Part shown: positions 7,345-23,311 of the stretch, piece by piece
Layout of the letters: every line of letters begins with the position of its first letter
Position numbering within the stretch: position 1 is the stretch's first letter
Assembly: GCF_003259895.1 (NCBI RefSeq)
Contig: NZ_QLME01000001.1
Location: forward strand, 26,152-58,151
Reading direction: 5' to 3'
Origin: Halanaerobium saccharolyticum
Lineage (GTDB): Bacteria; Bacillota; Halanaerobiia; Halanaerobiales; Halanaerobiaceae
Length of the DNA stretch: 32,000 bases
Notes under the pieces: generated by a model
Database searches by the model: none
What the model saw: the letters and a program-made list of their open reading frames with translations, nothing else
Told to the model about the DNA's origin: nothing
Program-made: the position numbers and the translations under genes

Positions 7345-8592
7345 ATGCAGGAAACACCGAAAGGTAATCGACCGCACATTGGAGTTTTTGGACGCAGAAA
7401 CGCAGGTAAATCAAGTTTGATTAACAGTCTAACTAATCAGGACCTGGCTCTTGTTTCCAGTATTCCCGGAACAACAACTGATCCCGTTTATAAAGCAATG
7501 GAACTCCTGCCCCTTGGTCCCGTAATCATAATCGACACAGCAGGTATCGATGATACTGGTGAGCTGGGCGAGCTGAGAGTAAAGAAAACTCTGGAAGTTA
7601 TCAGGAAAACTGATCTGGCAGTTCTTGTAATTGATCCTGAGCAAAAAATTGGTGATTATGAGTCCGATCTGCTGAATAAATTTTCCGAATCAGAGACTCC
7701 AGTAGTTCTCTGTCTGAATAAAATTGATTTAGAAACTGAAAAAGAAACTTTAATTAACAAAATAAAAGAAGAATATCAGCTGCAGGCTGTGCCAGTCAGT
7801 GCAGCCACAGGAGCAGGAATTGAAAATTTACGTGATCAGATAGCAGATAAAATGCCTGCTGACACGGAAGAAGCATTTATTGTAGGAGATCTGGTTGACC
7901 CGGGTGATACTATTGTACTGGTAACTCCTATTGATCTCGCAGCTCCCAAAGGGAGACTAATTCTACCTCAAGTTCAGACTATTCGCGATGTACTTGATCA
8001 TGATGGAATAACTATGGTCTGTAAAGAAAGAGAATTAAAGCTAACTCTGGATAAATTAAAAGAAGCTCCTAAACTGGTAATCACAGATTCTCAGGCTTTT
8101 ATGAAAGTAGATGCAGATGTACCTGAAGATATTCTGCTGACAGGCTTTTCAGTTCTATTTGCCCGCTACAAAGGTGATCTGGAGATCTTCCTCCGGGGAG
8201 CCAGAAGGTTAGAAAAACTGCAGGCAGGTGATAAAATTTTGATTGCTGAAGCCTGTACCCACCGCCGTCAGGCTGATGATATCGGAACTGTTAAACTGCC
8301 CCGCTGGCTGAGATCAAAGGTCGGCGCTGACTTAGAGTTTGACCATGTTTCCGGTAGAGATTATCCAGACAATTTAACTGATTATGATCTTATACTTCAC
8401 TGTGGTGGCTGTATGCTGAATCGAAAAGAAGTGATTTCCCGCCTGCAAGAGGCAGATCAGGCAGGAATCCCGGTAATTAATTATGGAATGGCAATTGCCC
8501 AGCTGCACGGTATTCTTGACAGAGCTTTAAAACCCTTTCCTGCCGCCTATCATCTCTGGCTGGAAATGAAAGATGAGACAGCTTTAGTTTAA
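7345..8592 (+). CDS. hydF: [FeFe] hydrogenase H-cluster maturation GTPase HydF
   Basis: N-terminal GTPase (GRRNAGKSSL, DTAGIDD, NKID) with C-terminal cluster ligands 'CTHRR...FDHVSGRDYP...ILHCGGCMLNRKEV' (CxH...HCxxC), specific to HydF. Confidence 0.96.
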   Translation: MQETPKGNRPHIGVFGRRNAGKSSLINSLTNQDLALVSSIPGTTTDPVYKAMELLPLGPVIIIDTAGIDDTGELGELRVKKTLEVIRKTDLAVLVIDPEQKIGDYESDLLNKFSESETPVVLCLNKIDLETEKETLINKIKEEYQLQAVPVSAATGAGIENLRDQIADKMPADTEEAFIVGDLVDPGDTIVLVTPIDLAAPKGRLILPQVQTIRDVLDHDGITMVCKERELKLTLDKLKEAPKLVITDSQAFMKVDADVPEDILLTGFSVLFARYKGDLEIFLRGARRLEKLQAGDKILIAEACTHRRQADDIGTVKLPRWLRSKVGADLEFDHVSGRDYPDNLTDYDLILHCGGCMLNRKEVISRLQEADQAGIPVINYGMAIAQLHGILDRALKPFPAAYHLWLEMKDETALV

Positions 8593-8617
8593 ACCCTTTC
8601 TAAATAAGGAGGAAATA

Positions 8618-10045: not shown

Positions 10046-10057
10046 CAAATAAAATAA

Positions 10058-10106
10058 CCCCACCTTAAAAGCACCTGTTAAAAAATAGTGCTTAAGGTGG
10101 GTTTTA
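10058..10106. terminator. Bidirectional terminator between convergent genes
   Basis: cccaccttaaaagcac...gtgcttaaggtggg hairpin with TTTT on the plus side and a T/A-rich tract on the minus side, between aspA (+) and the MetE-like gene (-). Confidence 0.75.
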
Positions 10107-10130: not shown

Positions 10131-11234
10131 TCAGCCCCAGATCTCTTCTGCAATTTCAACAATTAATTTTAACTTCTGCCACTGATCTTCCTGACTCAGC
10201 TGATTACCATGATGGGTAGAAGCAAAACCACACTGAGGACTGAGGCAGAGCTGACTAAGAGGTATATATTCTGCTGCCTGCCTGATCCTGGCTTTTACTT
10301 TTTCTTTATCCTCCAGCTGACCATCCTTGGAAGTAATTAGACCCAGCACTACCTTTGTCTTTCCTTCAGGAATGTACTTTAAGGGTTCAAAACCACCTGA
10401 ACGCTGATCATCGTATTCCAGAAAAAAACCATCTACCTTTTCCCTGGCAAATAAAGTAGGGGCAATTAAATCATAACTGCCAGAAAAAGCCCAGCTTGAC
10501 TTATAATTCCCCCGACAGAGATGAGTAGTTAGCGATAGATCAGGCGGCTTCACTTCAAGTACACCATTGACCACTTCTAATGCCAGTTCAATTAGATATT
10601 CTCGTGAGAATGGCGCGTCTTGATAAGAAATATCGGGAGAAGAAAGACTGGCAATATAAACATCATCAAACTGCAGATAGCGAACTCCAGCCTCGTAAAA
10701 AGCTTTAAGTGCATCCTGATAGGTCTCAATTATATCCTGTGCATAGTCTTTAATATCTGGATAAATTTCTGAATTCCTAATTCCAAAATGAAACAGCTGA
10801 TTGGGACTCGGGATTGTCTGTTTAGCTGCTGCCCTTCCGTCAACAATTTTATTAAATTCTTTAAAATACTTAAGAAAAGAATGATCAGAATTAAAACTAA
10901 TTTTACCAGTATTACGGACATCATAGGCTTCTGTTTCCAGGTCAGCAAACTGATAACCTTTTTCCGGTACATACCCTTCAAAACCATTCAACTCTTCCAG
11001 AAAGTCAAGGTGCCACCAATCACGTCTAAACTCACCATCTGTAACAAGTTTAAGTCCGGCTTCCAGCTGTTTATTTACCGCTTTTTCTACTTCTTCTCTT
11101 TCAATCTGATGCAGTTCAGCTGCTCCTATTTTCCCTTGCTTAAAATTACTTTTAGCTTTCAACAGCCTCTTCGGCCTCAGTAAACTTCCAACATGATCAG
11201 CCCGAAAAGGTGCCTGAATTTGATCTGCTCCCAT
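10131..11234 (-). CDS. Cobalamin-independent methionine synthase C-terminal-domain-like protein (YxjG/YxjH-type)
   Basis: Track ORF extends to 11321, but an AGGAGGAG site points to ATG at 11234 (MGADQIQAPFRADHVGSLLRP...). Zn ligands look conserved: 'THLCRG' (HxC), 'FFLEYDDQRSGG' (E), 'LSPQCGFAS' (C). Confidence 0.85.
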   Translation of the reverse strand: MGADQIQAPFRADHVGSLLRPKRLLKAKSNFKQGKIGAAELHQIEREEVEKAVNKQLEAGLKLVTDGEFRRDWWHLDFLEELNGFEGYVPEKGYQFADLETEAYDVRNTGKISFNSDHSFLKYFKEFNKIVDGRAAAKQTIPSPNQLFHFGIRNSEIYPDIKDYAQDIIETYQDALKAFYEAGVRYLQFDDVYIASLSSPDISYQDAPFSREYLIELALEVVNGVLEVKPPDLSLTTHLCRGNYKSSWAFSGSYDLIAPTLFAREKVDGFFLEYDDQRSGGFEPLKYIPEGKTKVVLGLITSKDGQLEDKEKVKARIRQAAEYIPLSQLCLSPQCGFASTHHGNQLSQEDQWQKLKLIVEIAEEIWG

Positions 11235-11357: not shown

Positions 11358-12623
11358 TTACAGAAAGCTCTCCCCACTTTCAGGTGCCCTGACTTCAAAA
11401 TAATCCGCAATTGCTGCTGCTATATCAGCCAGACTTTCGCGGGGCGGCAGTACTTTTGCTGGTAAATCTTTTTTGTAAACTAAAAGGGGGACGTTTTCTC
11501 TGGTATGATGGCTGTGGCCTACAGTTGGATCATCACCATGATCAGCTGTAATAATAAAAAGGTCGTCTTCTCGTAAATTATCTATAATCTCCGGTATCTG
11601 CTGATCCACCATTTTTAAGACTCTGGCAAATTCTGCCGGATCCTGCTGATGACCTGCCAGATCAGTTTCCTGGACATTAACGGCAATCAGACCGGAATCA
11701 GCCTCCTCCATTTCCTGCTGCATCAGTTCCAGCACTTCTTCGGTTGCAACAGCAGGCAGTGATTTTCTGGCTTCTGGACAGTAGATTACATCCTGCACTT
11801 TACCAATCAAGCGGACATCTATCCCCTGGCCGGCCAGAATTGAAGTGATCTGTTTTTGATGATCAATTCCATAACCAAGATGGATTACCTGATAACCCTC
11901 TCCATAAACCCCGGAAGCTGTAGAATTAACACCTGTAATCTCAGAATTAGCATTCTCAATACTGTTAACAATCCTCTCAGTGCTTGTATTCTTACCGCCC
12001 AGCGCGATTACCCGACTGACTTTAACACTTGCTCTTACAATTTTTCCGATTGCAAGTATTTCTTCAAAATCTATCTCTTCTAATGAACCGCTGACATTGT
12101 AAATCTGCCCGTAATCAGCCTCAATATTATCCGCAACCACAACCCGCCGATCAACAAGCAGATAGGGATTTTCCTGGTCAGGCACACTAACTTTGTGCCC
12201 TTCATTTTCCAGAGCAGTCTTAACCTTTTGATGCACAACTTTAAAAGGCTGTATTTTAGGATGGGTCGGACTGGAACCCATAATTTCCTGATGTCCCATA
12301 AATGTATCTGCTCCATCATAACTTAAAGCAGCATAAGTATAAGCAGCTTTAAGTTTTTGTTTTTCACTTCCATTTTCCGTCAAATTTCGCTGTTCCGGAT
12401 CCATTTCCAATGTACTTTTGGGAAAACTTGGATCAAGTCTGCTTAAATTATAAGCCGCCTCCAGACCCAGCTGATTAAGGTTATTCAATTTTAAATCTTT
12501 ATTACTTTTTAAAACATTTCCCAGTGTATCTGCGGCCTGATCCTGCAGCCGCTGCTGTTCTTTGAGGTCATCCATTGCTCCAATTCCAAGTCCATCTAAA
12601 ATTAATAAAATTACTCTCTTCAA
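11358..12623 (-). CDS. yhfW: YhfW-like phosphopentomutase/alkaline phosphatase superfamily metalloenzyme
   Basis: 'MKRVILLILDGLGIGAMDD', 'GADTFMGHQEIMG', 'FIITADHGDDPTVGHSHHTRENVPLLVY': DeoB-like metal-site motifs in a yhf gene context. Confidence 0.85.
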   Translation of the reverse strand: MKRVILLILDGLGIGAMDDLKEQQRLQDQAADTLGNVLKSNKDLKLNNLNQLGLEAAYNLSRLDPSFPKSTLEMDPEQRNLTENGSEKQKLKAAYTYAALSYDGADTFMGHQEIMGSSPTHPKIQPFKVVHQKVKTALENEGHKVSVPDQENPYLLVDRRVVVADNIEADYGQIYNVSGSLEEIDFEEILAIGKIVRASVKVSRVIALGGKNTSTERIVNSIENANSEITGVNSTASGVYGEGYQVIHLGYGIDHQKQITSILAGQGIDVRLIGKVQDVIYCPEARKSLPAVATEEVLELMQQEMEEADSGLIAVNVQETDLAGHQQDPAEFARVLKMVDQQIPEIIDNLREDDLFIITADHGDDPTVGHSHHTRENVPLLVYKKDLPAKVLPPRESLADIAAAIADYFEVRAPESGESFL

Positions 12624-13816
12624 AGCCTGCTCCCTCCTTTTTCGTCTAGCAGTTGTCCCTGACTATTATAAATTCCATGCAGTTTTAATTTACCGTTTTG
12701 TATACCGCTAATCACAGCCACTCTGGCTCTGGTAACAAAAATCTGAGTTCTAAAAGCATAGAGTACTGTGTCTCCAATCTTCAATTTTCGATCTCTATTT
12801 TCCAGCGAAGCATAATAATCAATCATCTCAGAATCTGGCTGTGAGGCTGAATAAACTCGACTATTATTTTGATAGTCATCAGCAGCTACCAGTCCATTTT
12901 TTAAGTGGGAACGGCTGTAAAAGCCGCCGCCAAAAGTATATGCCTTGTCATCTTTTAAATGAGATATTTCAGAAATATAGATCATTGCCGGTTTTTCTCC
13001 CTGATCATAATAACCGTGATAAGGGGTAGTTCCTGTCAGGGCATGTCCCGGCTCCCCGTGAGTTGCTCCAGCAGCAGCCAGCCTTGGAATCGTCTTCTGA
13101 CAGCTGACACTTGGGGTATTTAACTGTTCAATTTCCAGCCCAAATTTTTCATTTAAAATTTCCCCTGTCTTTATCACCAGCTCTAAATTGGGAGTAGTTT
13201 CAATTTTTTTAGTCTGATAGTTAAATAAAAGGCAGGGAAAAGCTGTCAGCCCTTTAATTTCAACTCCCTTAAGCTTCATCAATTCAGGGATTACCTGATC
13301 TATATTTTTTAAATCAAAACCTCCAATCTGACCTTCATAATTAAATGAATCCTGACTGTAGATTCTGAGCATTATCGGCTGCACCCTATTCTGCTCCAGG
13401 GCCAACTTCGAAATTTGTTCTGCTTTTTGAAGGCTGTAGACAGTCATAATTTCCGGCTGATAAGCTATCATTTCTGAGAGCATAGAAGTCGGAACCTGAA
13501 CTAGATGACCGACATTTCCCAGTTCAATCCCTGCCTGCGCCAGAGTTCTGGCCTCCCAGGGATCCACAGCAACCGCCTTTTTAATTCCCGCTTCCACTAC
13601 CGCCTGAGCTGCCAGTGGATTTCTCCCCAGCTGTTTGCTCATAAAGTAGAGACTCAAATTATTCTCTGCTGCCGCTTCTGCCATCATAGCCGTATTAGCC
13701 TGAATCTGGTCCAGGTCTAAAATATATGTATTTGGTTCTAAAATATTTTTTCTGTGTAAATAAAAAGCTGTCTCAATTAATTCTGGATTTCTCTGCTGCA
13801 TTTTTTTTAAAAACAT
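12620..13816 (-). CDS. yhfX: YhfX-like alanine racemase N-terminal-domain PLP enzyme
   Basis: 'NTYILDLDQIQANTAMMAEAAAENNLSLYFMSKQLGRNP' (PLP lysine region), 'HGEPGHALTGTTPYHG'. Overlaps the yhfW start by 4 nt. Confidence 0.85.
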   Translation of the reverse strand: MFLKKMQQRNPELIETAFYLHRKNILEPNTYILDLDQIQANTAMMAEAAAENNLSLYFMSKQLGRNPLAAQAVVEAGIKKAVAVDPWEARTLAQAGIELGNVGHLVQVPTSMLSEMIAYQPEIMTVYSLQKAEQISKLALEQNRVQPIMLRIYSQDSFNYEGQIGGFDLKNIDQVIPELMKLKGVEIKGLTAFPCLLFNYQTKKIETTPNLELVIKTGEILNEKFGLEIEQLNTPSVSCQKTIPRLAAAGATHGEPGHALTGTTPYHGYYDQGEKPAMIYISEISHLKDDKAYTFGGGFYSRSHLKNGLVAADDYQNNSRVYSASQPDSEMIDYYASLENRDRKLKIGDTVLYAFRTQIFVTRARVAVISGIQNGKLKLHGIYNSQGQLLDEKGGSRL

Positions 13817-13818
13817 GA

Positions 13819-14928
13819 TTATCCCTGCCCTTTTAAAGCGGATATAGTTTCTTTAATGATTCTAATAACTGTATCAGCACCGGCCCGCATCGGATTAATC
13901 CGCACCAGATATTTTTCTGCTTCCGGATTTTCCTGTCTAAAAGTTCCCGAAATCCTGTAAAACATGGCTCCAATCTCATAGCGTGATTCTGAACCAACAG
14001 GATAGGGCACCCCTCCCTGCTCATTAACTGCTGCCAGAAAATCACGGGCTATTGCCTGCTCAAATTCTATAATCACAACTTTAGACTGAGCATTGGCAAT
14101 AAATGAATTTTTAACCGCTTCAACTTCTCCCTGATTGAGGCGCTGATTAACCTCTTCTACAGTCTGAGCCTGAATTGCCAGACTGACAGGTGTATTTACC
14201 ATGGACCGGAGAGCATCCATCGCCTCTGGACCCTGCACCTGACTGCCGCCCGAATAATTAATTGCTTCAACTTTATCTAAATATTTTTTCTTACCCACAA
14301 GCAGTCCGATTCCAGGTGGTCCCTGCAGTTTAAAAAGCGAAAAAGTACTCAAATCAGCACCTCTTTCAACCCCAATTTGCTCAACTTTCATTGCTGCATA
14401 GTTGTCATCTGTGATTATTGGTGTTTCGGGATATTTGGCCTTCAATATTTTTATAACTCTGCCAAAATCATAGCTGTCATCTATTTTCTGACGGCTGTGC
14501 TGAACTAAAATAGCTGCAAAATCTTCTGCCGGCAGCAATTTCTGAGCTTCCATTTCCTTTAAGCGATTGAAATCAAATTTTTTAGTTTCTAAATCCATGC
14601 TTTTAAATGTTACTTCAGTTGTTGGATAAACTGCTGCCTCGTGAATTAAAACTTTAGACCCCACCTCAAGATTGGCATTGAAAAAAGCTCTAATTGCACC
14701 AGTGCCTGCTCCTCTAACTAAAAGAGCCTTTTCCGCCCCAAAAAAGTCTGCCAGAACCTTCTCGACTCTGGCTGTATAGCGGGGCTTTTTAAATTCGGGG
14801 TCAAGTCCATAGTCACCTGCCTGCAAAAGCTCTGCTCCCTTAAATTGGCGCTGAATTGCATCTACAAGTTTCTGCTGCAATTTTATGGCTTGTTCCAGGC
14901 TAAGTGATTTAAGAGGATAAGTCTGCAT
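13819..14928 (-). CDS. yhfS: YhfS-like PLP-dependent aminotransferase-fold enzyme
   Basis: 'GAGTGAIRAFFNANL', 'PIITDDNYAAMK', 'ADLSTFSLFKLQGPPGIGLLVG' (Schiff-base Lys context). The GGAGG position favours ATG at 14928 rather than the track start at 14943. Confidence 0.84.
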   Translation of the reverse strand: MQTYPLKSLSLEQAIKLQQKLVDAIQRQFKGAELLQAGDYGLDPEFKKPRYTARVEKVLADFFGAEKALLVRGAGTGAIRAFFNANLEVGSKVLIHEAAVYPTTEVTFKSMDLETKKFDFNRLKEMEAQKLLPAEDFAAILVQHSRQKIDDSYDFGRVIKILKAKYPETPIITDDNYAAMKVEQIGVERGADLSTFSLFKLQGPPGIGLLVGKKKYLDKVEAINYSGGSQVQGPEAMDALRSMVNTPVSLAIQAQTVEEVNQRLNQGEVEAVKNSFIANAQSKVVIIEFEQAIARDFLAAVNEQGGVPYPVGSESRYEIGAMFYRISGTFRQENPEAEKYLVRINPMRAGADTVIRIIKETISALKGQG

Positions 14929-14960
14929 TTTTAAAACCTCCATTTATAAAATAATAGCTT

Positions 14961-15857
14961 TTATGAAAATAATTTTGCCGGATTATGAATCAGGATGCCT
15001 TCAATCTCTTCTTCGCTTACAGCTGCTGCTTTTAATTTAGGAATAAATTTTTCAAAAAGATACTGATAACTGTGGCCGTCATTTGCTTTTAAATGTGACA
15101 TCCGGGTAATATCTGTCGAAATTAAAACTTGATCTTTAAACCCTGCTTTAAGCAGGGCCTTAATCAGTCTAATTCTGAATTGATCACTCTGGTATTTTAA
15201 CTTACCAATGGTATCAATGCCGATAAATACTCCTCTGGCGGCAAGCTCCAGCACATAATCAATATCAGCTGCCAGATCAAGATGACTGAGGGCCACCCGG
15301 GATAAATCTGCACCGGCTTTTTCTAAAATTTCAAGCTGCTCCAGACCACAGCTGCCAAGTGTCAGGTGGGTAATAATCGGAACTCCTGTCTCCTTCTGGG
15401 CGAGGGCGGCAGCCTGCAGTAATTTTTTCTCAGCTGCAGTTATTTCCTGACTGGTGCCAACTTCTCCAATCACACCGGCTTTAATATCTGTCCCCTCAAT
15501 CCCTTCCTTAATTTCGCTGACCATTAATTCGACCAGTTCCTGTTTAGTCTTTTGGTAGAAAAAATCTGGCAGATAGGGTTCTTTGTAAAAGCCTGTGCTG
15601 GCAATAATATTCATTCCCAGCTGATCAGCCAGATAGCGGAGTCTTGCTGTATCTCTTCCCATCCCGATATTAGTCAGTTCGACAATCGTTTTAACTCCGG
15701 CCTTTTTTATTTCTTTAAGATCCTGCAGCAGAGCCTCACCTTCCAGCCGGGCATCGGGATCATTTTTCTGCTCTGTAAGATCTATAGTTAAATGTTCGTG
15801 ATACATTGTAATTCCCATCGCTTCTGCTTTTATTTGTTTATTCAAAGTATTGATCAA
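14961..15857 (-). CDS. php: Php-like phosphotriesterase homology protein (amidohydrolase superfamily)
   Basis: 'MYHEHLTIDL' (HxH), 'GVIGEVGTSQEIT' (Glu where PTE has carbamylated Lys), 'VPIITHLTLG', 'VALSHLDLAAD', 'LISTDITRM'. TTG start with AGGAG upstream; overlaps the upstream gene by 20 nt. Confidence 0.88.
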   Translation of the reverse strand: MINTLNKQIKAEAMGITMYHEHLTIDLTEQKNDPDARLEGEALLQDLKEIKKAGVKTIVELTNIGMGRDTARLRYLADQLGMNIIASTGFYKEPYLPDFFYQKTKQELVELMVSEIKEGIEGTDIKAGVIGEVGTSQEITAAEKKLLQAAALAQKETGVPIITHLTLGSCGLEQLEILEKAGADLSRVALSHLDLAADIDYVLELAARGVFIGIDTIGKLKYQSDQFRIRLIKALLKAGFKDQVLISTDITRMSHLKANDGHSYQYLFEKFIPKLKAAAVSEEEIEGILIHNPAKLFS

Positions 15858-16962
15858 AATTATCAGCTCCTAAAAAATCATTTTCTTTTTCAGCATAATT
15901 TTTGAGAAAATATCTTGCAAAAAGTTCCGGCCGCTTATAGCATTTTTGTAAACGCTCAGCCAATTTAATCACTTTAAATCCATTTTTTATACCTGGTCTG
16001 GCCAGTAAAACTATAGCAAGACCGAGCCTGTCAGTGGGGATAGTAACAGCAGTTGCATTGACCAGATTGGCTGCCCGCATTAGATATTTACCGCTCTTTT
16101 TCTGGGCAGCCTCAGCAATTTTAAAACTGCCGGCAACAGAATCACCATAACCATAATAATCAACAGGTCCTTCTGCAGTTATTATAATCTCATTTCCCTG
16201 CTCAAACGCCTTTTCTATAATCTGAATTGCCTGTTTTCGATCTTCACTGCCCTTAAGATTAATTCTATTTAGATTAAAATCACTCAACTCAGCTTCTATT
16301 TCTGCAGTTACAGCAGCCATATCTTCTCCCTGAGGTAATAAAACACTTTTCACCTCAGGCAGAGCAATAGTCAGATCTTTGTTTAACTCAACATCTTTAC
16401 TCAAAGCCCACTGCTCTGGGGCAAGAATCTTTTTTAAAGCCAGAGTGCAGAGTTTAAAATCGTGAGAAATAAAGCCGATTCCAGGCCTGAATTCTAAATT
16501 ATCAGTTGAAATTCTCTTGTTAGTTGCCTGAAGTCCCATACCTTTAGCCATCAGGGAAGACAGAGAAACCGAGGCTGCAGGAGCTAAAACTGAACCTCCA
16601 CCATCTGTTCCCACCGCAAGATCGTTTATTCCCCGGAGAATATTTAGACAGCCTCCACTGCTGGAACCAGTCATCACTCTCAAAGTTAAAGGATTGATTA
16701 GCTCAGGATCGACTGCTCTCCCACCTCTGGCCATCTTATCAATTGTATGTAAAAGAAAAGTCTGATCCTCAGTTAATTTATCCACTAATTTTTTTGAAAT
16801 TTGAGAGGTGTTTTTAATACCCAGCAGATAATGTTCTTGCCTGGATTCGGCCAATTCTGACAGCCTCTTTTTCAGGCCGCTGTTGTGATAAACCACTGCT
16901 TTAGAACTGCTGGCAAGAGCATTATTAAATTTTTTCTTTAAATCCAGGTTTAAATTATTCAT
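15838..16962 (-). CDS. Compact, divergent amidase-signature family protein embedded in the yhf-type cluster
   Basis: 374 aa; 'TGSSSGGCLNILRGINDLAVGTDGGGSVLAPAASVSL' matches the Ser-cis-Ser core of the amidase signature, followed by 'LQATNKRIS...FRPGIGFISHDFKLCTLALKKI'. Possible catalytic Lys in 'HTIDKMARGG'. Confidence 0.72.
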   Translation of the reverse strand: MNNLNLDLKKKFNNALASSSKAVVYHNSGLKKRLSELAESRQEHYLLGIKNTSQISKKLVDKLTEDQTFLLHTIDKMARGGRAVDPELINPLTLRVMTGSSSGGCLNILRGINDLAVGTDGGGSVLAPAASVSLSSLMAKGMGLQATNKRISTDNLEFRPGIGFISHDFKLCTLALKKILAPEQWALSKDVELNKDLTIALPEVKSVLLPQGEDMAAVTAEIEAELSDFNLNRINLKGSEDRKQAIQIIEKAFEQGNEIIITAEGPVDYYGYGDSVAGSFKIAEAAQKKSGKYLMRAANLVNATAVTIPTDRLGLAIVLLARPGIKNGFKVIKLAERLQKCYKRPELFARYFLKNYAEKENDFLGADNFDQYFE

Positions 16963-17022
16963 ATTTACTCCTTAATTTGAGCCCGAAAATTTTAGAATTC
17001 CCGGGCTCAATTTCAATTGTAT

Positions 17023-18303
17023 TTAGACTAAAGAAAATAAAGCGAAAATATTAGCAATAATACCAACCATTATAGCTGCTGTAGGTCCAACTGCCATTCT
17101 TACTATTGGCTGATCTCCAATTTCGTTTAAAATATAGAGTCCGGCCACAAAGAAAAACCCAAATCCTGGTATGATTGCATTGGCAGCATTCATACCTCCA
17201 ACTAAGAGGGCTACTTCTAAAACTTTAGACATCGAAGTCCTAATATTATCACCGGCTTTTTTAATTCCAGGAAACTTATCAAGCAGAGTTGCAACTTTAC
17301 CCAGTAATAAAATCTCTATGGAAATAATTACAGCACCTACAATTGCAGCAATCAATGGGTTCTGAATAAATAGAGCCGCTGCAAAAATAAATGTCATTCC
17401 TACAGGCCCATATACTCCTGTAGCTATTGCTGTAGTAGCAATTAAAGGAACAAAACCAACTGCTCTGGCTAAAGCAGCAAGTGCAGCTTCATTTATTGCA
17501 CCCTCACTTACTAAGTTTAAGGAAATAGGATCTCCTGCCAGAATTAGATAAGCAGTAGCAGCCGAAACTAATCCACCCATCACAGCTAAATAGGGTAAGT
17601 TGCTTTTAATTCTTTCCACCCTTTTACTAAAAATTGAAACTAAATCACCAACATTACTTTCTTCTCCCTTTTCTCCAGCGGCGAAGATTAATAAGGTTGT
17701 CATACCAGCAATTAGTGCCATTCCTTCGGGATTAATACTTATTTCAAGACCATTAATCATTAAGGGGCTAACAACAACTGCAATTTGTCTCACTATTCCA
17801 GTAAGGATTAAAGTAAATCCACCTTTTTTGATTCCAAACTGATAAGCAACAGCCAGGGCAGGGAAAGCAGCAAAGGCTACAACTATTGGACTACCTACAG
17901 CTCCCAGATCTTCTAAAAAGTTAACAGGTAAAACTTCAAATAAATTTACAATTGCTTCCAGACCATAAGTTAAACCAACACCATATAGAGCACCAACTAC
18001 TCCAGCGCCAGCTGCACCTTTGTTATTATCTGGGGCCCAGGTACCAATAATATCTGTACCCAATAAAATACTATGTATTAAAATAATATTTGCCGATAAA
18101 CTAAATGGAATTCCAAAACCAACAACCAGACCAAAACTCATAGCAAAAGAAGTAGCAGCAAGTTCTTTACGGCTCATTCTATTTTCTACATATTCTGGTA
18201 TTACCGGACGCAAACTATCATTAAATACAGCAATCCCCTTATTTGCAAGTATAGCAGCCATTCCACCAATTAAAGCCATTAGTATTAATTGCATTATTCT
18301 CAC
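17023..18303 (-). CDS. yhfT: YhfT-like multi-pass membrane protein
   Basis: 426 aa, strongly hydrophobic with many TM segments, directly linked to YhfU/YhfY/YhfZ-like ORFs. Confidence 0.83.
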   Translation of the reverse strand: MRIMQLILMALIGGMAAILANKGIAVFNDSLRPVIPEYVENRMSRKELAATSFAMSFGLVVGFGIPFSLSANIILIHSILLGTDIIGTWAPDNNKGAAGAGVVGALYGVGLTYGLEAIVNLFEVLPVNFLEDLGAVGSPIVVAFAAFPALAVAYQFGIKKGGFTLILTGIVRQIAVVVSPLMINGLEISINPEGMALIAGMTTLLIFAAGEKGEESNVGDLVSIFSKRVERIKSNLPYLAVMGGLVSAATAYLILAGDPISLNLVSEGAINEAALAALARAVGFVPLIATTAIATGVYGPVGMTFIFAAALFIQNPLIAAIVGAVIISIEILLLGKVATLLDKFPGIKKAGDNIRTSMSKVLEVALLVGGMNAANAIIPGFGFFFVAGLYILNEIGDQPIVRMAVGPTAAIMVGIIANIFALFSLV

Positions 18304-18327
18304 TCCCGTTTTTTGTTAGACTTTACT

Positions 18328-18684
18328 TTAGTTTAAAATGTTCTTTAATAAAAGAGTCACAGCTTTTTCTAAATGATCTGAAGTAAAACCAAAAGCAACT
18401 TTTCCTGCTTCAAGTTCTTCAACTATTTTTTCCTCTTTAGGTGGCTTAGCAGGCATTGAAATCGTAGCGCATTTAGTGCTGCTCAAGATTGCCATGGCCA
18501 TTCCTAATGCTCCTCCACCACCGGTATGACAGGCACCAAAATAATAATCAGCTTTTCCCTGCTTAATTGTATTCGCCGCTTTAATATCATCCATGATCTC
18601 TACCTCTACTTGATCACCGGCAATTTCTTTAATTTTTTTAGCAATTTTTTGTTTGTCAACCTGACCGCCTACAACTATCTTCAT
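18328..18684 (-). CDS. yhfU: YhfU-like protein (DUF2620)
   Basis: 118 aa 'MKIVVGGQVDKQKIAKKIKE...GKADYYFGACHTGGGGALGMAMAIL...'; adjacent to yhfT, overlaps the preceding gene by 1 nt. Confidence 0.8.
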   Translation of the reverse strand: MKIVVGGQVDKQKIAKKIKEIAGDQVEVEIMDDIKAANTIKQGKADYYFGACHTGGGGALGMAMAILSSTKCATISMPAKPPKEEKIVEELEAGKVAFGFTSDHLEKAVTLLLKNILN

Positions 18685-19058
18685 TATTTATTCCCCCCCT
18701 CTTTTTTTATTAAATTACCAAAATGTAAAACTAAATAATTTTTTTCTCCAGCTGGAATTTCAATTTCGGTTTCAGCTTCAATTTGCTCTATAAAATCCAT
18801 ACAGTCAGAATAAAATTTTTCTTTTTTTAACTCTGCTAAAACCATCTCATTTAAATCTTCTACTTCTTCACCTTTTTTTATCCTCATCAGAGCCATCGGT
18901 AAATGGGTTACCAGCATTGCTGCATTCTCATTTTTTAATTCTAAATTAAAATCTGATTCAAACTTTTTCAATAAACTTTCTATCTTTTTCTTTAGTTCTG
19001 TTTCCAGTTGATCACCTTCAACTAAAATCTCTAATCTCTGTTTTAATTTAGGATCCAT
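18684..19058 (-). CDS. yhfY: YhfY-like stand-alone PRD-domain protein
   Basis: 124 aa with PRD-like histidine contexts 'AAMLVTHLPMALMRIKKGEEVE' and 'NYLVLHFGNLIKK'; located between yhfZ and yhfU. Confidence 0.75.
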   Translation of the reverse strand: MDPKLKQRLEILVEGDQLETELKKKIESLLKKFESDFNLELKNENAAMLVTHLPMALMRIKKGEEVEDLNEMVLAELKKEKFYSDCMDFIEQIEAETEIEIPAGEKNYLVLHFGNLIKKEGGNK

Positions 19059-19068
19059 TCTCTTCCTC

Positions 19069-20004
19069 CTAATACTCAGGAATTAATTTGTGATTATATA
19101 CTTCTTTTTGAGCTTTAATTACCTCTTCAGGATCAATTGTCTTGGCTAAAATCCTCTTAATCATTCTGCTGTTTTTATTAACCAAAATTACCGCATTACT
19201 GATATCTTTATTTTTGGCAGTCGATTTATCATTCTGCAGTTCAGTAAAGTTTATATTATCAAGGTCTTTAATCTCATCATAATTCCAGACTGCTGCATCT
19301 ATAGTTTTATTTTTTATATGCTCCATTATTTTCATGTAGGTCAATTCTATAAATTCTACATCCTGATTTTGACATTCCAGCTTTGTTAGTATCTTATGAT
19401 CAATAGAAGTTGAATCAAGTCCAACTTTCATCCCATTTTCAATTTTTGCAGCTTCCGGATCCGAAAAAACTATCACATGTTTAGAAAGATAGGTACCCGG
19501 TCCAAATTCACAAAAAAGTTCAAATTGATCCCGATCTTCATGATTCTGGGCAGCAAATTTAGATAAAACAATAAAATCATATTTATCATCTTTTAAGACA
19601 TTCAATCGTTTTTCCGCACCTCTGGTATAGGCAATACTGTAATTAAAATCTGCTTTTTTAAACTCCTGATTTAATCCAGTTGCCAGCCCCTCATAACGCA
19701 GAGAATAAGGCAGTGGTAAAAGTCCCATTATCATTCCTAAATCTGCAATTTCCCAGAGCAGGTGATAATCTAAATCAAGAATATAGCTGCCTAAATGTCC
19801 TTTTGATTCCAGCTCTACAGCCTGATGTTCAGTTAAAAATGATATTGCAGACTGGATAGTGCCTCGTCCGGTGTTATAGCGCTCCGCATAACCACTAATT
19901 GTATCAATTCTTTCGCCTTTGTTTTTTAAGAAAAAATCCCGGGCCAGCATTGAAGTTATGAAGCCGATTTTTGACATCATTTTGCTCTTTATTTCAGAAA
20001 CCAT
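19069..20004 (-). CDS. yhfZ: YhfZ-like transcriptional regulator (GntR-like winged HTH plus binding domain)
   Basis: 311 aa; N-terminal 'RIDTISGYAERYNTGRGTIQSAISFLTEHQAVELESKGHLGSYI' wHTH, C-terminal periplasmic-binding-protein-like region; first gene of the cluster, GGAGG upstream. Confidence 0.83.
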   Translation of the reverse strand: MVSEIKSKMMSKIGFITSMLARDFFLKNKGERIDTISGYAERYNTGRGTIQSAISFLTEHQAVELESKGHLGSYILDLDYHLLWEIADLGMIMGLLPLPYSLRYEGLATGLNQEFKKADFNYSIAYTRGAEKRLNVLKDDKYDFIVLSKFAAQNHEDRDQFELFCEFGPGTYLSKHVIVFSDPEAAKIENGMKVGLDSTSIDHKILTKLECQNQDVEFIELTYMKIMEHIKNKTIDAAVWNYDEIKDLDNINFTELQNDKSTAKNKDISNAVILVNKNSRMIKRILAKTIDPEEVIKAQKEVYNHKLIPEY

Positions 20005-20020: not shown

Positions 20021-20082
20021 AATATACAATTTTCTGTACAATAGAATAAAAATAAAATACAATGTACTGTATTCTGTATATT
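20021..20082. promoter_or_regulatory. Repeat-rich putative operator for the yhf-type cluster
   Basis: Inner repeat AATACA-atgtac-TGTATT (20056-20073), outer imperfect repeat aatatacaattttctgtac (20021-20039)/gtactgtattctgtatatt (20064-20082), and several TGTAC/TGTAT half-sites, directly downstream of the -10. Confidence 0.55.
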
Positions 20083-20111
20083 AGTTTAGCATAAGATTTA
20101 AAATTTTGCAA
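20083..20111 (-). promoter_or_regulatory. Putative sigma-A promoter of the yhf-type cluster
   Basis: Minus strand TTGCAA (20106-20111)-17 nt-TAAACT (20083-20088) with a TGC extended -10. Confidence 0.55.
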
Positions 20112-20130: not shown

Positions 20131-20163
20131 AAAAACTGCAGCCCATAACTGCCTGAGCTGCAG
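20131..20163 (-). terminator. Rho-independent terminator downstream of the nagB-like gene
   Basis: Minus strand CTGCAGC-loop-GCTGCAG followed by TTTTT. Confidence 0.65.
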
Positions 20164-20201: not shown

Positions 20202-20939
20202 TTATAACAATTTAGCCGAATCTTCATCTAAAAAGACATCTGTACTTTTATGCTCTTTTAAAATTGAGGCAGGACAGTCAACTGTAACTTCATCACCAGC
20301 TAAACAATTCTTAACTGCCTCAGCTTTTCTGGCGCCGGGTACTGTGCAGATAATATTTTCGGACTTCATAATTTGTTTAACTGTCATCGTAATCGCATTT
20401 TTTGGAACATCAGCAATAGTCTCAAACCAGCCTTCTTTAACCTGCTGTTTTCTGGAAACATCATCCAGCTCAACAATAATAAATGGATCCTCTTCTTCAA
20501 AATCTGCAGGTGGTTCATTAAAAGCCAGATGACCATTTTCACCTATGCCAACAAATGCAGCCTGAATTTTATCTTCTTCCTTAATTTTTTGATTTAAGCT
20601 CTGACATTCTTTTTCCGGATCATTCATCCCATCTATTAAGTTAATTTCTTTTAATTCACCAACTTCAGAGATAAAGTTTTCTTTAATATATTTTCTAAAA
20701 CTAGCCTTATGAGTTTCGTCTAGCCCGAGATATTCATCTAAATGATAAAGTTTAGTTTTGGACCAATCTATATCATCGAATTCTACTAATTCAGCTAAAA
20801 AATCAAGTTGAGAATTACCGGTAGCGATGATAAATACTGCTTCCCCATCTTTTTCGATGCTTTCAATCAAAATTTCTCTAGCTCTTTCTGCGGCGTATTT
20901 ACTTGTTGTTTTTTTGTCCTGATAAACATTTATTTTCAT
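20202..20939 (-). CDS. nagB: Glucosamine-6-phosphate deaminase family protein
   Basis: 245 aa; 'FIIATGNSQLDFLAEL', 'KLYHLDEYLGL', 'AAFVGIGENGHLAFNEPPADF', 'ITMTVKQIMKSENIICTVPGARKAEAV'. Confidence 0.85.
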   Translation of the reverse strand: MKINVYQDKKTTSKYAAERAREILIESIEKDGEAVFIIATGNSQLDFLAELVEFDDIDWSKTKLYHLDEYLGLDETHKASFRKYIKENFISEVGELKEINLIDGMNDPEKECQSLNQKIKEEDKIQAAFVGIGENGHLAFNEPPADFEEEDPFIIVELDDVSRKQQVKEGWFETIADVPKNAITMTVKQIMKSENIICTVPGARKAEAVKNCLAGDEVTVDCPASILKEHKSTDVFLDEDSAKLL

Positions 20940-21195: not shown

Positions 21196-21834
21196 CTAAA
21201 CTTCTCTGGCCTTTGCTATTTTTTCAACAAAAGCCGCCGCAGTTTGAGTCACTTTATCAAAATCTCCAGTTTTGGCACCAGCAGTAAGGGAACTGCCAAC
21301 TCCAACCGCTGCACTTCCGGCCTTAATCCATTCTGCAACATTATCCAGACTAACTCCTCCAGTAGGCAGCAGTGGTGCCTGGGGTACTGGTCCTTTAATT
21401 GCTTTGATGATCTTTGGTCCAAAAAGCGAGGCCGGGAAAATTTTAACTAAATCAGCACCCGCTTCCATAGCTTTTACTACCTCAGTTACTGTCATTGCTC
21501 CCGGGATTACAGGCTTCTGATATCTATTAGCTAACTTAACCATCTCCTCATTAAAAGAGGGACTGACAATGTATTCCGCCCCTGCCAGAATACAGGTTCT
21601 AGCAGTTTCGGCATCCAGAACAGAACCAGCTCCTATTATGATCTCCTCTCCCTCAAATTCTTTACTTAATTCAGAGATAACATCCACCGCTCCGGGAACT
21701 GTCATGGTGATTTCCAGACCTTTTATTCCTCCTTTTTTGACTGCCCGCGCAATCTTGACTGCCTCATCTCCATTTTGAGCTCTAATCACAGCAACGATAC
21801 CTGTTTCCTGCAGTTTATTAATTGTATTCATCAT
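21196..21834 (-). CDS. eda: 2-dehydro-3-deoxy-phosphogluconate/KDG aldolase family protein (Eda-like)
   Basis: 'TGIVAVIRAQNGDEAVKIARAVKKGGIKGLEITMTVPGA', 'GAGSVLDAETARTCILAGAEYIVSP', 'KIFPASLFGPKIIKAIKGPVPQAPLLPTGGV'. Track ORF starts at 21882; GGAAGG supports ATG at 21834. Confidence 0.9.
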   Translation of the reverse strand: MMNTINKLQETGIVAVIRAQNGDEAVKIARAVKKGGIKGLEITMTVPGAVDVISELSKEFEGEEIIIGAGSVLDAETARTCILAGAEYIVSPSFNEEMVKLANRYQKPVIPGAMTVTEVVKAMEAGADLVKIFPASLFGPKIIKAIKGPVPQAPLLPTGGVSLDNVAEWIKAGSAAVGVGSSLTAGAKTGDFDKVTQTAAAFVEKIAKAREV

Positions 21835-23287: not shown

Positions 23288-23311
23288 TTTTTACCTCCTC
23301 AAATATCAATA

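Follow-up and report, generated by a model that had tools for sequence, protein, structure and literature searches.

A complete yhf/php operon in Halanaerobium saccharolyticum, its probable YhfZ operator and a tentative link to cell-wall fragments

The window analysed here, a 32,000 nt stretch of the Halanaerobium saccharolyticum genome, carries on its minus strand (positions 11358-20004) a run of genes resembling the yhf/php cluster of E. coli, for which a literature search found no paper reporting a function. The locus raises the question of whether these genes form one functional unit and, if so, on what compound their products might act.

Gene content and conservation of the cluster

Nine consecutive minus-strand ORFs fill the interval exactly. 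In their order along the transcript they are:

19069..20004, minus strand: yhfZ, regulator with a GntR-type HTH and a periplasmic-binding-protein-like sensor domain
18684..19058, minus strand: yhfY, single PRD domain protein (PF00874, E=4e-13)
18328..18684, minus strand: yhfU, DUF2620 protein with a predicted RpiB-like fold (PF10941, E=3e-45)
17023..18294, minus strand: yhfT, polytopic membrane protein, presumed permease (PF10797, E=3e-172)
15838..16962, minus strand: short cytoplasmic amidase-signature enzyme (PF01425)
14961..15857, minus strand: php, binuclear-metal amidohydrolase of the phosphotriesterase family (PF02126, E=2e-87)
13819..14928, minus strand: yhfS, fold-type I PLP enzyme (YhfS-like_C and Aminotran_5)
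12620..13816, minus strand: yhfX, fold-type III, alanine-racemase-like PLP enzyme (Ala_racemase_N and YhfX-like_C)
11358..12623, minus strand: yhfW, phosphopentomutase-like metalloenzyme of the alkaline-phosphatase superfamily

For yhfT and yhfS the ORFs (17023-18303 and 13819-14943) are longer than the genes as read from their ATG starts at 18294 and 14928. The tight spacing described in the initial annotation was borne out by the ORF listing, with intergenic distances from yhfZ to yhfW of +10, -1, +33, +60, -20, +32, +2 and -4 nt and three start/stop overlaps, including the 4 nt shared by yhfX and yhfW. The family names previously given to yhfZ, yhfY, yhfU, yhfT, php, yhfS, yhfX and yhfW all hold in Pfam and NCBIfam, none of the eight being overturned by HMM searches. 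Protein identity to the E. coli K-12 counterparts is 27-49% (BLASTP), and the best PDB matches of Php, YhfS and YhfX are the solved E. coli structures. A chance arrangement is of no concern because the same nine genes were called independently on five related metagenome contigs. The Halanaerobium cluster contains the whole of the yhf/php operon, which is widespread and also present in E. coli, and it is an ordinary member of this known yet unsolved operon.

Anchoring on YhfT alone gave 80 genome loci, of which 64 (from Bacillota, Thermotogota and Fusobacteriota) were not truncated and make up the complete set. Php, YhfS and YhfX were found in all 64, YhfU in 63, YhfZ and YhfY in 61 and YhfW in 59, and all eight core genes were present in 55; the genes are a conserved set, as had been proposed, and not an unrelated or scattered one. 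Together the nine families travel in at least four phyla. The commonest order, Z-Y-U-T-(amidase)-Php-S-X-W, occurs in 26 of the complete loci, whereas E. coli, with Z-Y-X-W-Php-U-T-S, is an outlier. Thus, although the Halanaerobium order does differ from that of E. coli, it is the latter that is rearranged. A third order was seen in Marinilactibacillus, and the pairs Z-Y, U-T and X-W are kept even where the order differs. The ninth gene, earlier counted as one extra gene, is a real ORF with the amidase signature but is a regular member of the cluster, being present in 41/64 complete loci; two distant homologues, looked up independently, both lie within yhf clusters.

Control region and ends of the transcript

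YhfZ scores 373 bits against NF041241 (YhfZ_full; cutoff 260), has the domains HTH_41 and YhfZ_C and is 29% identical to E. coli YhfZ. Its gene is adjoined by yhfY in Firmicute and E. coli gene orders alike, and Thr51-His52 and Arg59 of YhfY are invariant among 16 orthologues, E. coli included. The grouping of YhfT, YhfU and YhfY as a membrane/small-protein module had to be given up for YhfY, which is a regulatory PRD domain and invariably accompanies YhfZ. The following features flank the nine genes:

20202..20939, minus strand: NagB-like gene directly upstream of yhfZ (PF01182)
20106..20111, minus strand: candidate -35 box TTGCAA of the yhfZ promoter
20083..20088, minus strand: candidate -10 box TAAACT
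20057..20072, no strand assigned: palindrome O1, putative YhfZ operator (minus strand: ATACAGTACATTGTAT)
20024..20039, no strand assigned: palindrome O2, second putative YhfZ operator (minus strand: GTACAGAAAATTGTAT)
10131..11234, minus strand: MetE-like gene, cobalamin-independent methionine-synthase family (NF005085, 443 bits)
10051..10101, minus strand: hairpin followed by a T-run (CCCACCTTAAGCAC ... GTGCTTTTAAGGTGGG then GTTATTTTATTT)

The two candidate promoter boxes, read from the sequence, are separated by a 17 nt spacer, and the TTGCAA/TAnnCT arrangement recurs in the Halanaerobium loci L007-L009. Both palindromes lie between the candidate promoter and yhfZ, O2 just upstream of the ribosome-binding site. 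RTACA-N6-TGTAY has two matches in the 32 kb window, both upstream of yhfZ, with 0.11 expected, and 0/100 shuffles reached two. Across genomes, a site falls within -200..+60 of yhfZ in 53/73 loci, at a density of 3.2 per kb compared to 0.05 per kb elsewhere, and most of the sites outside this upstream region fall at the Z-Y junction. Similarly, 50/74 upstream regions come within three mismatches of the palindrome consensus, compared to 1.9% of background windows. This conserved palindrome, newly described here, is probably the YhfZ operator.

No convincing terminator was seen between yhfW and the MetE-like gene, which is possibly a tenth gene of the transcript, its membership of the operon being uncertain; in two Fictibacillus loci a gene of the same family immediately precedes yhfZ. 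The hairpin at 10051..10101, picked out by reading the sequence, is the likely transcript end; it was absent from the minus-strand list of an automatic terminator scan. At the other end, the NagB-like gene (141 bits against TIGR00502, under the 236.9 cutoff) is a separate unit and a recurrent companion of the cluster, and a weak terminator-like hairpin lies at 20138-20152. A NagB-like gene is likewise upstream of yhfZ in Psychrilyobacter, and 7-10 other loci have a nagB-like gene directly downstream of yhfW, the one scored (L014) reaching 297 bits, above the nagB cutoff.

Predicted activities of the encoded proteins

The amidase shows 100% identity to an 'amidase' of H. saccharolyticum. It matches PF01425 partially (30.4 bits, cutoff 27), aligns with GatA and malonamidase E2 over its signature core, and has Lys50, Ser102 and Ser124, which 24 homologues keep without exception. 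Php matches 1BF6/4LEF (E=1e-72) and has H20, H22, E132, H164, H192 and D249, which we take to be the metal ligands of E. coli Php, all conserved with that protein. Judged by alignment, the predicted catalytic triad of the amidase and the six ligands of Php are intact. The Php family also includes PTER, which hydrolyses N-acetyl amides (PMC11374699).

YhfS matches 4J8L (E=1e-104) and has an invariant Lys200; the enzymes closest to its family profile are methionine gamma-lyases and C-S lyases (E=3e-13). YhfX matches 4KBX (E=3e-87), with an invariant Lys61 and alanine racemases as the next-best matches of its profile (E=1e-5). YhfW scores 515 bits against PRK12383 (cutoff 254), shares the motifs DxxGxG and GxDTFMGHQE with E. 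coli YhfW, and matches DeoB structures (E=1e-30) over its C-terminal part only.

YhfT is at least 57% identical across phyla. Comparison of its model (pLDDT 69) with solved structures gave no significant match and no solved transporter, and neither this comparison nor a Pfam search found similarity to PTS EIIC. YhfU models confidently (AlphaFold, pLDDT 95.8) and looks RpiB-like in fold, its Cys-x-Thr loop being invariant: the best TM-scores (0.65-0.69) are to RpiB structures, the alignment columns of Cys52-x-Thr54-Gly4 are invariant, and Cys52/Thr54 align, in what is a weak alignment, with RpiB Cys66/Thr68.

Candidate substrates

Import and breakdown of an amino-containing, possibly phosphorylated compound, as suggested by the initial annotation, would fit everything seen. 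Going further, we tentatively propose, from gene content and context, that the region is one YhfZ-controlled operon, a Firmicute-type version of the E. coli cluster with a dedicated amidase, and that its substrate may be an amide-linked amino-sugar/amino-acid fragment of the bacterial cell wall, freed from peptidoglycan or from polymers attached to it. The cell-wall and amino-sugar neighbours come from independent lineages. PBP4B-like genes encoding a signal peptide and an SxxK motif occur in 15 loci, in four of them inside the operon, and nagB or nagB-like genes are adjacent in about 12. MupG is found in four loci, in one of them along with a Lac/Chb-type PTS that separates yhfU from yhfT, MurQ in three and a MurP-like PTS in two. 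yhfZ is adjoined by an M23 peptidoglycan endopeptidase in two loci and by an L-Ala-D/L-Glu-epimerase-like gene in H. kushneri, and in sister strains a NAGPA phosphodiester-glycosidase-domain gene is inserted upstream of it. Such neighbours are a minority, roughly 35/82 loci, in a count made without a background rate. In five Bacilli loci a HisJ-type phosphatase stands in place of yhfW, which points to a phosphate-handling step. PBP4B of E. coli is part of the murQP operon, and murQRP of B. subtilis carries the muramoyl-L-alanine amidase AmiE (PMC5061867). A plain MurNAc pathway was ruled out, since MurQ co-occurs with the cluster and is not replaced by it.

By family resemblance, on which every enzymatic step rests, YhfZ would occupy both RTACA-N6-TGTAY sites and repress transcription until its sensor domain takes an inducer, with the PRD protein YhfY, which has an invariant histidine, perhaps modulating it. 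The substrate would be taken up by YhfT together with the RpiB-like Cys-loop protein YhfU, and the cytoplasmic amidase would split an amide bond, a step that other lineages might replace by extracellular cutting of a larger precursor with a secreted PBP4B-like serine hydrolase. Php could then hydrolyse a second bond, either an N-acyl group, as mammalian PTER does, or a lactone/phosphoester. At the exposed alpha-amino centre YhfX may epimerise and YhfS eliminate or transaminate, YhfW would shift or remove a phosphate, and the sugar part might leave as hexosamine-6-phosphate for NagB. A point against the proposal is that peptidoglycan peptides lack phosphate, leaving YhfW without an obvious role unless the substrate is phosphorylated on uptake, and YhfT is not similar to PTS EIIC.

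Pentose phosphates are the substrates of the nearest characterised relatives of Php (phospho-furanose lactonase), YhfW (phosphopentomutase) and YhfU (RpiB), a pattern pointing away from a cell-wall substrate. The nearness of YhfS to sulfur-amino-acid lyases is a further observation against it, as are the missing amidase in E. coli and 23/64 complete loci and the fructoselysine genes (frlABCDR) next to the E. coli cluster.

That E. coli neighbourhood fits catabolism of glycated amino acids (Amadori/Heyns products, relatives of fructose-/glucose-lysine), in which YhfU would isomerise an imported sugar-amine, or a NagB-like enzyme split sugar from amine, with YhfX and YhfS handling the (D/L) basic amino acid set free. 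In L014 the cluster is closely followed downstream by a fructoselysine-6-phosphate deglycase (NF008481, 454 bits, cutoff 430) and a PfkB-family kinase; the best NCBIfam match of YhfX is ornithine racemase; and NagB chemistry could in principle free an N-substituent from a 2-amino sugar phosphate. However, Frl-type neighbours occur in only about three lineages, Php, the amidase, YhfW and the secreted PBP4B-like enzymes are left unexplained, and halophilic or thermophilic anaerobes would not obviously feed on Maillard products, making this unlikely. We consider equally doubtful a phosphorylated 2-amino-2-deoxy-aldonate or lactone (a glucosaminate-like 'sugar amino acid'), for which Php would open a phospho-lactone or remove an N-acyl group, YhfX epimerise C2, a DgaE-like YhfS eliminate water and ammonia, supplying an aldolase with a 2-keto-3-deoxy acid phosphate, and YhfW reposition the phosphate. 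Php does match a phospho-furanose lactonase (NF045706, E=3e-36), and presumably has phosphate in its active site in the E. coli entry 4LEF; YhfS weakly matches DgaE/SelA-like and MJ0158 PLP families; and the window has a KDPG aldolase gene 1.2 kb upstream. There is also a weak match of YhfU to the Gly-rich SFCGS family, some homologues carrying both Pfam labels, and an Enterococcus cluster of that family, with PRD, membrane protein, amidohydrolase, SelA-like and KDPG-aldolase genes, is presumably analogous. Against this, the aldolase is not a conserved neighbour, no dehydrogenase is present to produce the aldonate or lactone, the YhfS profile is nearer to Met gamma-lyases than to SelA/DgaE, and the NagB, amidase and PBP4B-like genes stay unexplained.

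The same YhfS profile could suit salvage of a sulfur-/homoserine-type conjugate (an S-ribosyl/S-alkyl homocysteine derivative or N-acyl-homoserine lactone), with Php as lactonase, the amidase as deacylase, YhfS as gamma-lyase, YhfU and YhfW acting on pentose phosphate, as their likeness to RpiB and phosphopentomutase would allow, and homocysteine passing to the MetE-like enzyme. Lactonase activity is common among PTE-like enzymes, the cluster has a MetE-like neighbour in the window and in the two Fictibacillus loci, and 11 loci have MetN-type ABC ATPases at a distance of 6 kb or less. This is quite improbable: the MetE and MetN neighbours are few, mostly outside the operon and partly limited to related genomes, the NagB, MupG, MurQ and PBP4B-like genes find no place, and acyl-homoserine lactones are atypical of these anaerobic Firmicutes. 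Still less probable is an N-acylated phospho-/phosphono-amine (e.g. N-acetyl aminoethyl-phosphonate or -phosphate), which Php would deacylate as PTER does N-acetyltaurine, before YhfS as aminotransferase and YhfW as C-P or P-O hydrolase. It draws on cleavage by PTER of N-acetyl amides of anionic amines, on the match of YhfS to Aminotran_5, a class that includes AEP transaminase, on the membership of YhfW in the alkaline-phosphatase superfamily and its weak match to the phosphonate enzyme PhpG, and on the amino-alcohol phosphate known as substrate of the HisJ-type phosphatases that replace YhfW, but the loci have no phosphonate-specific neighbour, and the idea accounts for neither YhfX nor YhfU nor the NagB and muropeptide context. 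Mere juxtaposition without a single pathway, which has nothing specific in its favour, is effectively refuted by the co-occurrence data, as 55/64 complete loci from four phyla have the eight core families side by side and in one orientation, the Z-Y, U-T and X-W pairs survive reordering, the Marinilactibacillus order included, and a common operator motif is present.

Composition and gene order of the yhf/php cluster

Positions 11358-20004 were found in the ORF listing to be filled exactly by nine minus-strand ORFs in the order yhfZ-yhfY-yhfU-yhfT-amidase-php-yhfS-yhfX-yhfW, with intergenic spacings, in that order, of +10, -1, +33, +60, -20, +32, +2 and -4 nt. Three pairs overlap, and the genes show the one-strand contiguity (gaps of -20 to +60 nt) that marks a yhf/php cluster. 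All eight core families (YhfZ, PRD/YhfY, DUF2620/YhfU, YhfT, PTE/Php, YhfS, YhfX and YhfW) were recognised in the window with Pfam and NCBIfam, together with one extra gene.

Family assignments of the nine genes (11358-20004, minus strand), from yhfZ to yhfW
YhfZ: NF041241 equivalog, 373 bits (cutoff 260)
YhfY: single PRD domain, PF00874
YhfU: DUF2620
YhfT: PF10797, E=3e-172
Extra gene: Amidase, PF01425, 30.4 bits (cutoff 27); a weak, partial match over residues 90-207 only
Php: PTE family, E=2e-87
YhfS: YhfS-like_C and Aminotran_5
YhfX: Ala_racemase_N and YhfX-like_C
YhfW: PRK12383, 515 bits (cutoff 254)

Reciprocal BLASTP against the E. coli K-12 proteins gave E values from 1e-12 to 2e-117 and identities of 27-49%, and the top PDB matches by far were E. 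coli crystal structures (Php, 1BF6/4LEF; YhfS, 4J8L; YhfX, 4KBX). Independent gene calls on related metagenome contigs returned the identical nine-gene set. YhfT shares 80-88% identity with proteins of Halanaerobium, and for the amidase there is a 100% identical protein in Halanaerobium saccharolyticum, a species placed in Bacillota, Clostridia, Halanaerobiales. The ORF listing, the family assignments, the PDB matches and the independent gene calls thus bear out the initial annotation, which had read this region as a complete nine-gene yhf/php set.

A scan with a YhfT alignment, covering one genome per species, detected relatives in 360 stretches. ORFs were called in the best 80 of these 360 loci and matched to the window proteins, and the 64 loci among them with sequence past both cluster ends were treated as complete. 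In these 64 (among the best 80 of 360), Php, YhfS, YhfX and YhfT were present throughout, YhfU in 63, YhfZ and YhfY in 61 each and YhfW in 59, and the full eight-gene core in 55. Co-occurrence of the genes in other genomes, a check set beforehand, was thereby decisively confirmed. The carriers include Clostridia, Tissierellia, Negativicutes, Bacilli, Thermoanaerobacter and Tepidanaerobacter, and also Thermotogota (comparison loci L031, L034, L038) and Fusobacteriota (L069, L076, L079, L089). A variant cluster in two Negativicutes loci (L055 and L060) is without yhfZ and has two yhfT copies, with a gene for an NYN-domain protein between the second yhfT and yhfU.

The E. coli K-12 cluster (yhfZ-yhfY-yhfX-yhfW-php-yhfU-yhfT-yhfS, b3383-b3376) contains the same eight families, likewise co-oriented and contiguous, and the pairs Z-Y, U-T and X-W (letters standing for the yhf genes, Ami for the amidase) are kept in both. 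The blocks, however, are ordered ZY/XW/Php/UT/S in E. coli and ZY/UT/Ami/Php/S/XW in the window, which has the amidase gene in addition and so departs from the E. coli gene order. The window's order was the commonest among the complete loci (26/64, from the best 80 of 360), followed in the same set by this order minus the amidase (17/64) and by placement of the amidase after yhfW (10/64), and gene order is therefore not defining for membership of the cluster. A third gene order was seen in Marinilactibacillus. The initial annotation was right that the order differs from that of E. coli, but had taken the window to be the rearranged one; it is E. coli that is rearranged, the window having the majority order. 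The cluster is an ordinary, majority-type copy of a known but functionally unsolved operon, and the window copy in itself has nothing unusual.

The yhf/php genes are a long-standing orphan operon of E. coli K-12. Crystal structures exist for at least three of the products, in entries labelled 'uncharacterized' or 'homology protein', and the full-text literature yielded no study of what any yhf protein does. Many literature matches were acronyms or the unrelated yhfS, yhfT and yhfW of B. subtilis, and 'b3379' in PMC9396866 is a strain name and not the E. coli gene. The 1.26-fold increase of yhfV (php) in E. coli under Bdellovibrio attack is negligible. A genome-wide screen (PMC12924614) had yhfW among its hits, with the MIC of ampicillin and of erythromycin raised 3-fold, an effect too weak and too general to build on. 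What is new here is comparative: the true core, the majority order, a dedicated amidase, alternative accessory enzymes, a candidate operator and a predicted RpiB-like fold for YhfU. Together with the phosphatase that takes the place of YhfW in some Bacilli and the recurrent association with NagB, MupG and MurQ, these provide handles for solving the operon; they would not surprise a specialist but are testable leads on a long-open question.

The control region and the limits of the operon

The counts from a generic promoter/terminator scan were at the level of shuffled sequence (37 vs 30.7; 12 vs 9.8), and the regulatory regions were consequently read by eye. No riboswitch or leader came out of an Rfam scan across the whole window.

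Features upstream of yhfZ (minus-strand gene)
Upstream of yhfZ: promoter candidate, TTGCAA, 17-nt spacer, TAAACT, read from the sequence
20057-20072: palindrome ATACAGTACATTGTAT, between the promoter candidate and the ribosome-binding site
20024-20039: palindrome GTACAGAAAATTGTAT, between the promoter candidate and the ribosome-binding site

In the 32-kb window the pattern RTACA-N6-TGTAY occurs at these two sites only, compared with 0.11 expected by chance. Across genomes, it was found within -200 to +60 of the yhfZ start in 53 of 73 loci, at a density of 3.2 per kb in that interval, compared with 0.05 per kb outside it. The yhfZ-yhfY junction, which also carries the palindrome in about 45 other genomes (loci L010-L086), accounts for most of the outside matches, and a few lie before php in some Clostridium loci. 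Sites with three or fewer mismatches to ATACAAAATATTGTAT were present in 50/74 upstream regions versus 1.9% of background windows. The palindrome occurs in Clostridia, Bacilli, Negativicutes and Thermotogota; it was not evident in the two Fusobacteriota loci tested nor in E. coli, where the pattern was undetectable upstream of yhfZ and the best match had 6 mismatches. It sits downstream of the -10 box, ahead of the ribosome-binding site, and for a GntR-type autorepressor a palindrome with a GT...AC core is expected in the interval from the -10 box to the start codon. We know of no published description of this palindrome, a conserved candidate operator that YhfZ would bind.

YhfY has an invariant Thr-His plus an Arg, typical of PRD domains. 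His52 does not vary, and E. coli YhfY is without the second PRD histidine. This regulatory domain (PF00874) with its conserved His52 is a PTS-related trait in the window. YhfY had initially been assigned to a membrane/transport module, a reading that had to be abandoned because the protein is a PRD domain and always travels with yhfZ, keeping to it, and not to yhfT and yhfU, when the order changes.

At the distal end, a strong hairpin followed by a T-run lies after the MetE-like gene (about 10051-10101), and since there is no convincing terminator before that point, the MetE-like gene may be co-transcribed with the operon. This gene (10131-11234, minus strand, downstream of yhfW) encodes a short protein of the cobalamin-independent methionine-synthase family (NF005085), a family that in two Fictibacillus loci (L078, L081) is the immediate upstream neighbour of yhfZ. 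On the plus strand, 7345-10045 encodes a maturation GTPase for [FeFe]-hydrogenase (HydF type) and a lyase of the class II fumarase/aspartase family, both genes running towards the operon terminator. On the other side, the NagB-like gene (20202-20939, minus strand) is followed by a weak terminator-like hairpin and has no operator. Four sister strains (L001, L002, L004, L008) carry a strain-variable insertion of about 8 kb between this gene and yhfZ, encoding an ABC sugar transporter, an 847-aa protein with a NAGPA (phosphodiester glycosidase) domain, a LacI regulator and a 421-aa protein without a family match; the insertion is missing from the window and from L003.

The putative amidase and the presumed uptake proteins

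Homologues of the extra gene form a compact family of 340-380 residues (442 at E<=1e-3). In an alignment of 24 homologues, Lys50 (G-[VI]-K-[ND]), Ser102 (GSSSG) and Ser124 (DGGGS) are invariant. GatA, FAAH and malonamidase E2 can be aligned to the signature core, GSSSGG...DGGGS corresponding to GGSSGG...DTGGS in GatA. By analogy, the three residues would form the Lys/cis-Ser/Ser triad of amidase-signature (AS) enzymes. The protein has 374 aa, compared with about 450-500 aa for a full-length AS fold, and could be aligned over about 50-120 residues with known AS members and about 50 with solved AS enzymes. It is a putative amidase-signature enzyme, with the signature and triad residues present in a partial match. 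Two distant homologues, looked up independently, both lay within yhf clusters, and the amidase is therefore a dedicated accessory gene of the operon.

YhfT is highly conserved, with at least 57% identity across phyla. Its structural model was only moderately confident (pLDDT 69), and this model gave no significant fold match among solved structures (best E=0.11, TM-score 0.2). PF10797 is its sole Pfam family, and with no fold match to a solved transporter YhfT does not qualify as an EIIC-type permease; the notion of YhfT as a PTS EIIC in disguise, or as a member of some other known class of transporter, was dropped because nothing significant emerged from the structure search.

The YhfU model was of high confidence (pLDDT 95.8), and its best superpositions were with type B ribose-5-phosphate isomerases (TM-score 0.65-0.69, rmsd 3.3-3.4 A); PTS EIIB was absent among the top 50 structural matches, and there were no sequence relatives in the PDB. 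An invariant loop, G-A-C52-x-T54-G-G-G-G, aligns, tentatively, with the catalytic Cys-Gly-Thr-Gly of RpiB, the match being weak (hhalign E=0.03, 10-15% identity). The likeness to RpiB/LacAB comprises the fold and the Cys-x-Thr-Gly loop, and sequence similarity is marginal: Pfam gave no match to PF02502 (RpiB) at E<=0.01, and no counterpart could be seen to RpiB's N-terminal Asp-His or to its phosphate site (His/Arg). Having neither the profile nor the full catalytic set, YhfU is, on its model, RpiB-like in a real fold resemblance but not a member of the RpiB family. In 61/64 complete loci (among the best 80 of 360), and in E. coli, yhfU adjoins yhfT, and this near-constant adjacency favours a joint role; YhfU may be an enzyme akin to sugar-phosphate isomerases, or else a partner of YhfT that depends on its Cys.

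Genomic neighbours, catalytic proteins and the possible substrate

Flanking ORFs from the best 80 of the 360 loci were clustered and then annotated for recurrent companions. Beta-lactamase-fold proteins resembling PBP4B were found in 15 loci, in four of them inside the operon (in the U-T or Php-S gap), and all have a signal peptide and an SxxK motif. As the amidase is without a signal peptide, strict functional equivalence of the two enzymes was rejected. A nagB or nagB-like gene directly follows yhfW in 7-10 loci, and a nagB-like gene precedes yhfZ in the window and in Psychrilyobacter; the window gene scores 141 bits against TIGR00502, below the cutoff of 236.9, and the nagB next to yhfW in L014 clears it (297 bits). 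Four loci have MupG, one of them together with a PTS of the Lac/Chb type that separates yhfU from yhfT; MurQ was seen in three loci and a MurP-like PTS in two. The neighbour of yhfZ is an M23 peptidoglycan endopeptidase gene in two loci and an L-Ala-D/L-Glu-epimerase-like gene in H. kushneri. In five Bacilli loci without yhfW (L051, L078, L081, L083, L086) a HisJ-type PHP phosphatase gene is adjacent; in L078, L081 and L083 the PRD gene has diverged beyond BLAST detection. The window's YhfW falls below the cutoff of the DeoB equivalog TIGR01696 (156 bits vs 341) and above that of PRK12383 (515 vs 254), and by these profiles it represents a sister family of phosphopentomutase and is not DeoB.

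The cluster is very probably one inducible uptake-and-catabolism operon under YhfZ. As to its substrate class, we infer, tentatively, an amide-linked amino-sugar/amino-acid fragment derived from bacterial cell walls. Such a compound would be imported by YhfT and YhfU and de-amidated by the amidase or, in other lineages, extracellularly by the PBP4B-like enzyme; Php would carry out a further hydrolysis, YhfX and YhfS would process the amino-acid part, YhfW would move or remove a phosphate, and the sugar part would exit via NagB.

AmiE of B. subtilis presumably has a beta-lactamase fold. PBP4B of E. coli is part of the murQP operon, and the B. subtilis murQRP operon carries the secreted muramoyl-L-alanine amidase AmiE (PMC5061867). 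The logic shared with muropeptide/MurNAc recycling (E. coli murQ-murP-yfeW; B. subtilis murQRP-amiE-nagZ-namZ) would be extracellular amidase, uptake and cytoplasmic processing (PMC5061867, PMC8054146), and in several lineages PBP4B-like, MurQ, MupG, MurP-like PTS and NagB genes lie beside or inside yhf clusters. The likeness is one of genomic context only: no core yhf protein (0/8) belongs to the known pathway, and unlike MurNAc recycling operons the window itself is without MurQ, MupG or a PBP4B-like gene. The cell-wall neighbours occur in a minority of loci, the source of a phosphate is not obvious unless uptake phosphorylates the substrate, and relatives among phospho-furanose lactonases, phosphopentomutase, RpiB and methionine gamma-lyases point to pentose-phosphate or sulfur-amino-acid chemistry. 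A bolder version, which we think rather improbable, is that yhf is an undescribed catabolic route for cell-wall amino-sugar/amino-acid conjugates (e.g. de-N-acetylated or lactam-type muropeptides beyond NagZ/AmiE/NamZ/MurQ) with a new uptake machine, in which YhfT has no solved relative, YhfU would isomerise or phosphorylate the cargo and the PRD protein YhfY would report transport to the repressor YhfZ. Should the link to cell walls be real, the operon would fill a gap in the account of how gut, soil and subsurface bacteria live off the walls of other bacterial cells.

Glycated amino acids are an unlikely substrate. FrlB and a PfkB-family kinase accompany the cluster in one lineage, and the frl operon (frlABCDR) does so in E. 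coli; in the window the neighbour is the NagB-like gene.

Phospho-amino-aldonates or their lactones are equally unlikely. Characterised relatives of Php are lactonases, phospho-furanose lactonases and phosphotriesterases. The Salmonella D-glucosaminate (dga) pathway uses DgaE/DgaF chemistry, and YhfS weakly matches the MJ0158 and DgaE families. An Enterococcus cluster, which we take to comprise a PRD protein, a Gly-rich SFCGS protein, DUF4310/4311/4312 membrane proteins, an amidohydrolase, a SelA-like PLP enzyme and a KDPG aldolase, would on that composition share the yhf architecture (PRD, small Cys/Gly-loop protein, membrane protein(s), amidohydrolase, lyase-like fold-type I PLP enzyme), and YhfU weakly matches PF14272 (Gly-rich SFCGS), with double labels in some homologues. 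The yhf cluster differs in having another membrane protein family, no aldolase, and YhfX and YhfW in addition; no paper was found on the Enterococcus-type SFCGS/DUF431x cluster or on DgaE/DgaF chemistry.

Conjugates of homocysteine or homoserine seem less probable again. Compared by profile, YhfS comes closest to methionine gamma-lyases and C-S lyases (E=3e-13), with cysteine desulfurases next.

The YhfX profile reached, beyond YhfX itself, alanine racemases only (E=1e-5). Both PLP enzymes have an invariant lysine.

Php residues H20, H22, E132, H164, H192 and D249 align with H12, H14, E125, H158, H186 and D243 of E. coli Php, presumably the metal ligands described with structure 1BF6. With the ligands so assigned, the binuclear metal site (four His, one Asp, bridging Glu) appears to be kept. 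Against the PRK09875 equivalog the window protein scores 284 bits, below the cutoff of 486; it is an orthologue by context and best match, too diverged for that threshold. Classical phosphotriesterases have a carboxylated lysine as a metal ligand. PTER belongs to the same Pfam family as Php and both have a glutamate ligand (E132 in Php, E169 in mouse PTER), but PTER has a eukaryote-specific helical insertion and is a weaker PDB match to the window Php (9EFA, E=4e-38) than E. coli Php is (1e-72). The mammalian enzyme is an N-acetyltaurine/N-acetyl-beta-alanine amidohydrolase acting on N-acetyl amides (PMC11374699, PMC12873775), an example of the ability of the Php subfamily to hydrolyse small N-acyl amides. 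N-acyl phospho- or phosphono-amines, a substrate of that general kind, are nevertheless the least probable of those considered.

Elsewhere in the window, 21196-30196 (minus strand) forms a separate apparent sugar-acid utilisation block encoding TRAP DctP/Q/M, two SDRs, a D-2-hydroxyacid dehydrogenase, a LarA-like protein (Lar_N), an FGGY kinase and a KDPG aldolase, unusual company for the LarA-like protein. A 105-aa ORF at 6644-6961 (plus strand), within a low-GC stretch (6000-7000, GC 0.275), joins a response-regulator receiver tail directly to an AraC HTH tail and looks like the leftover of a deleted two-domain regulator.
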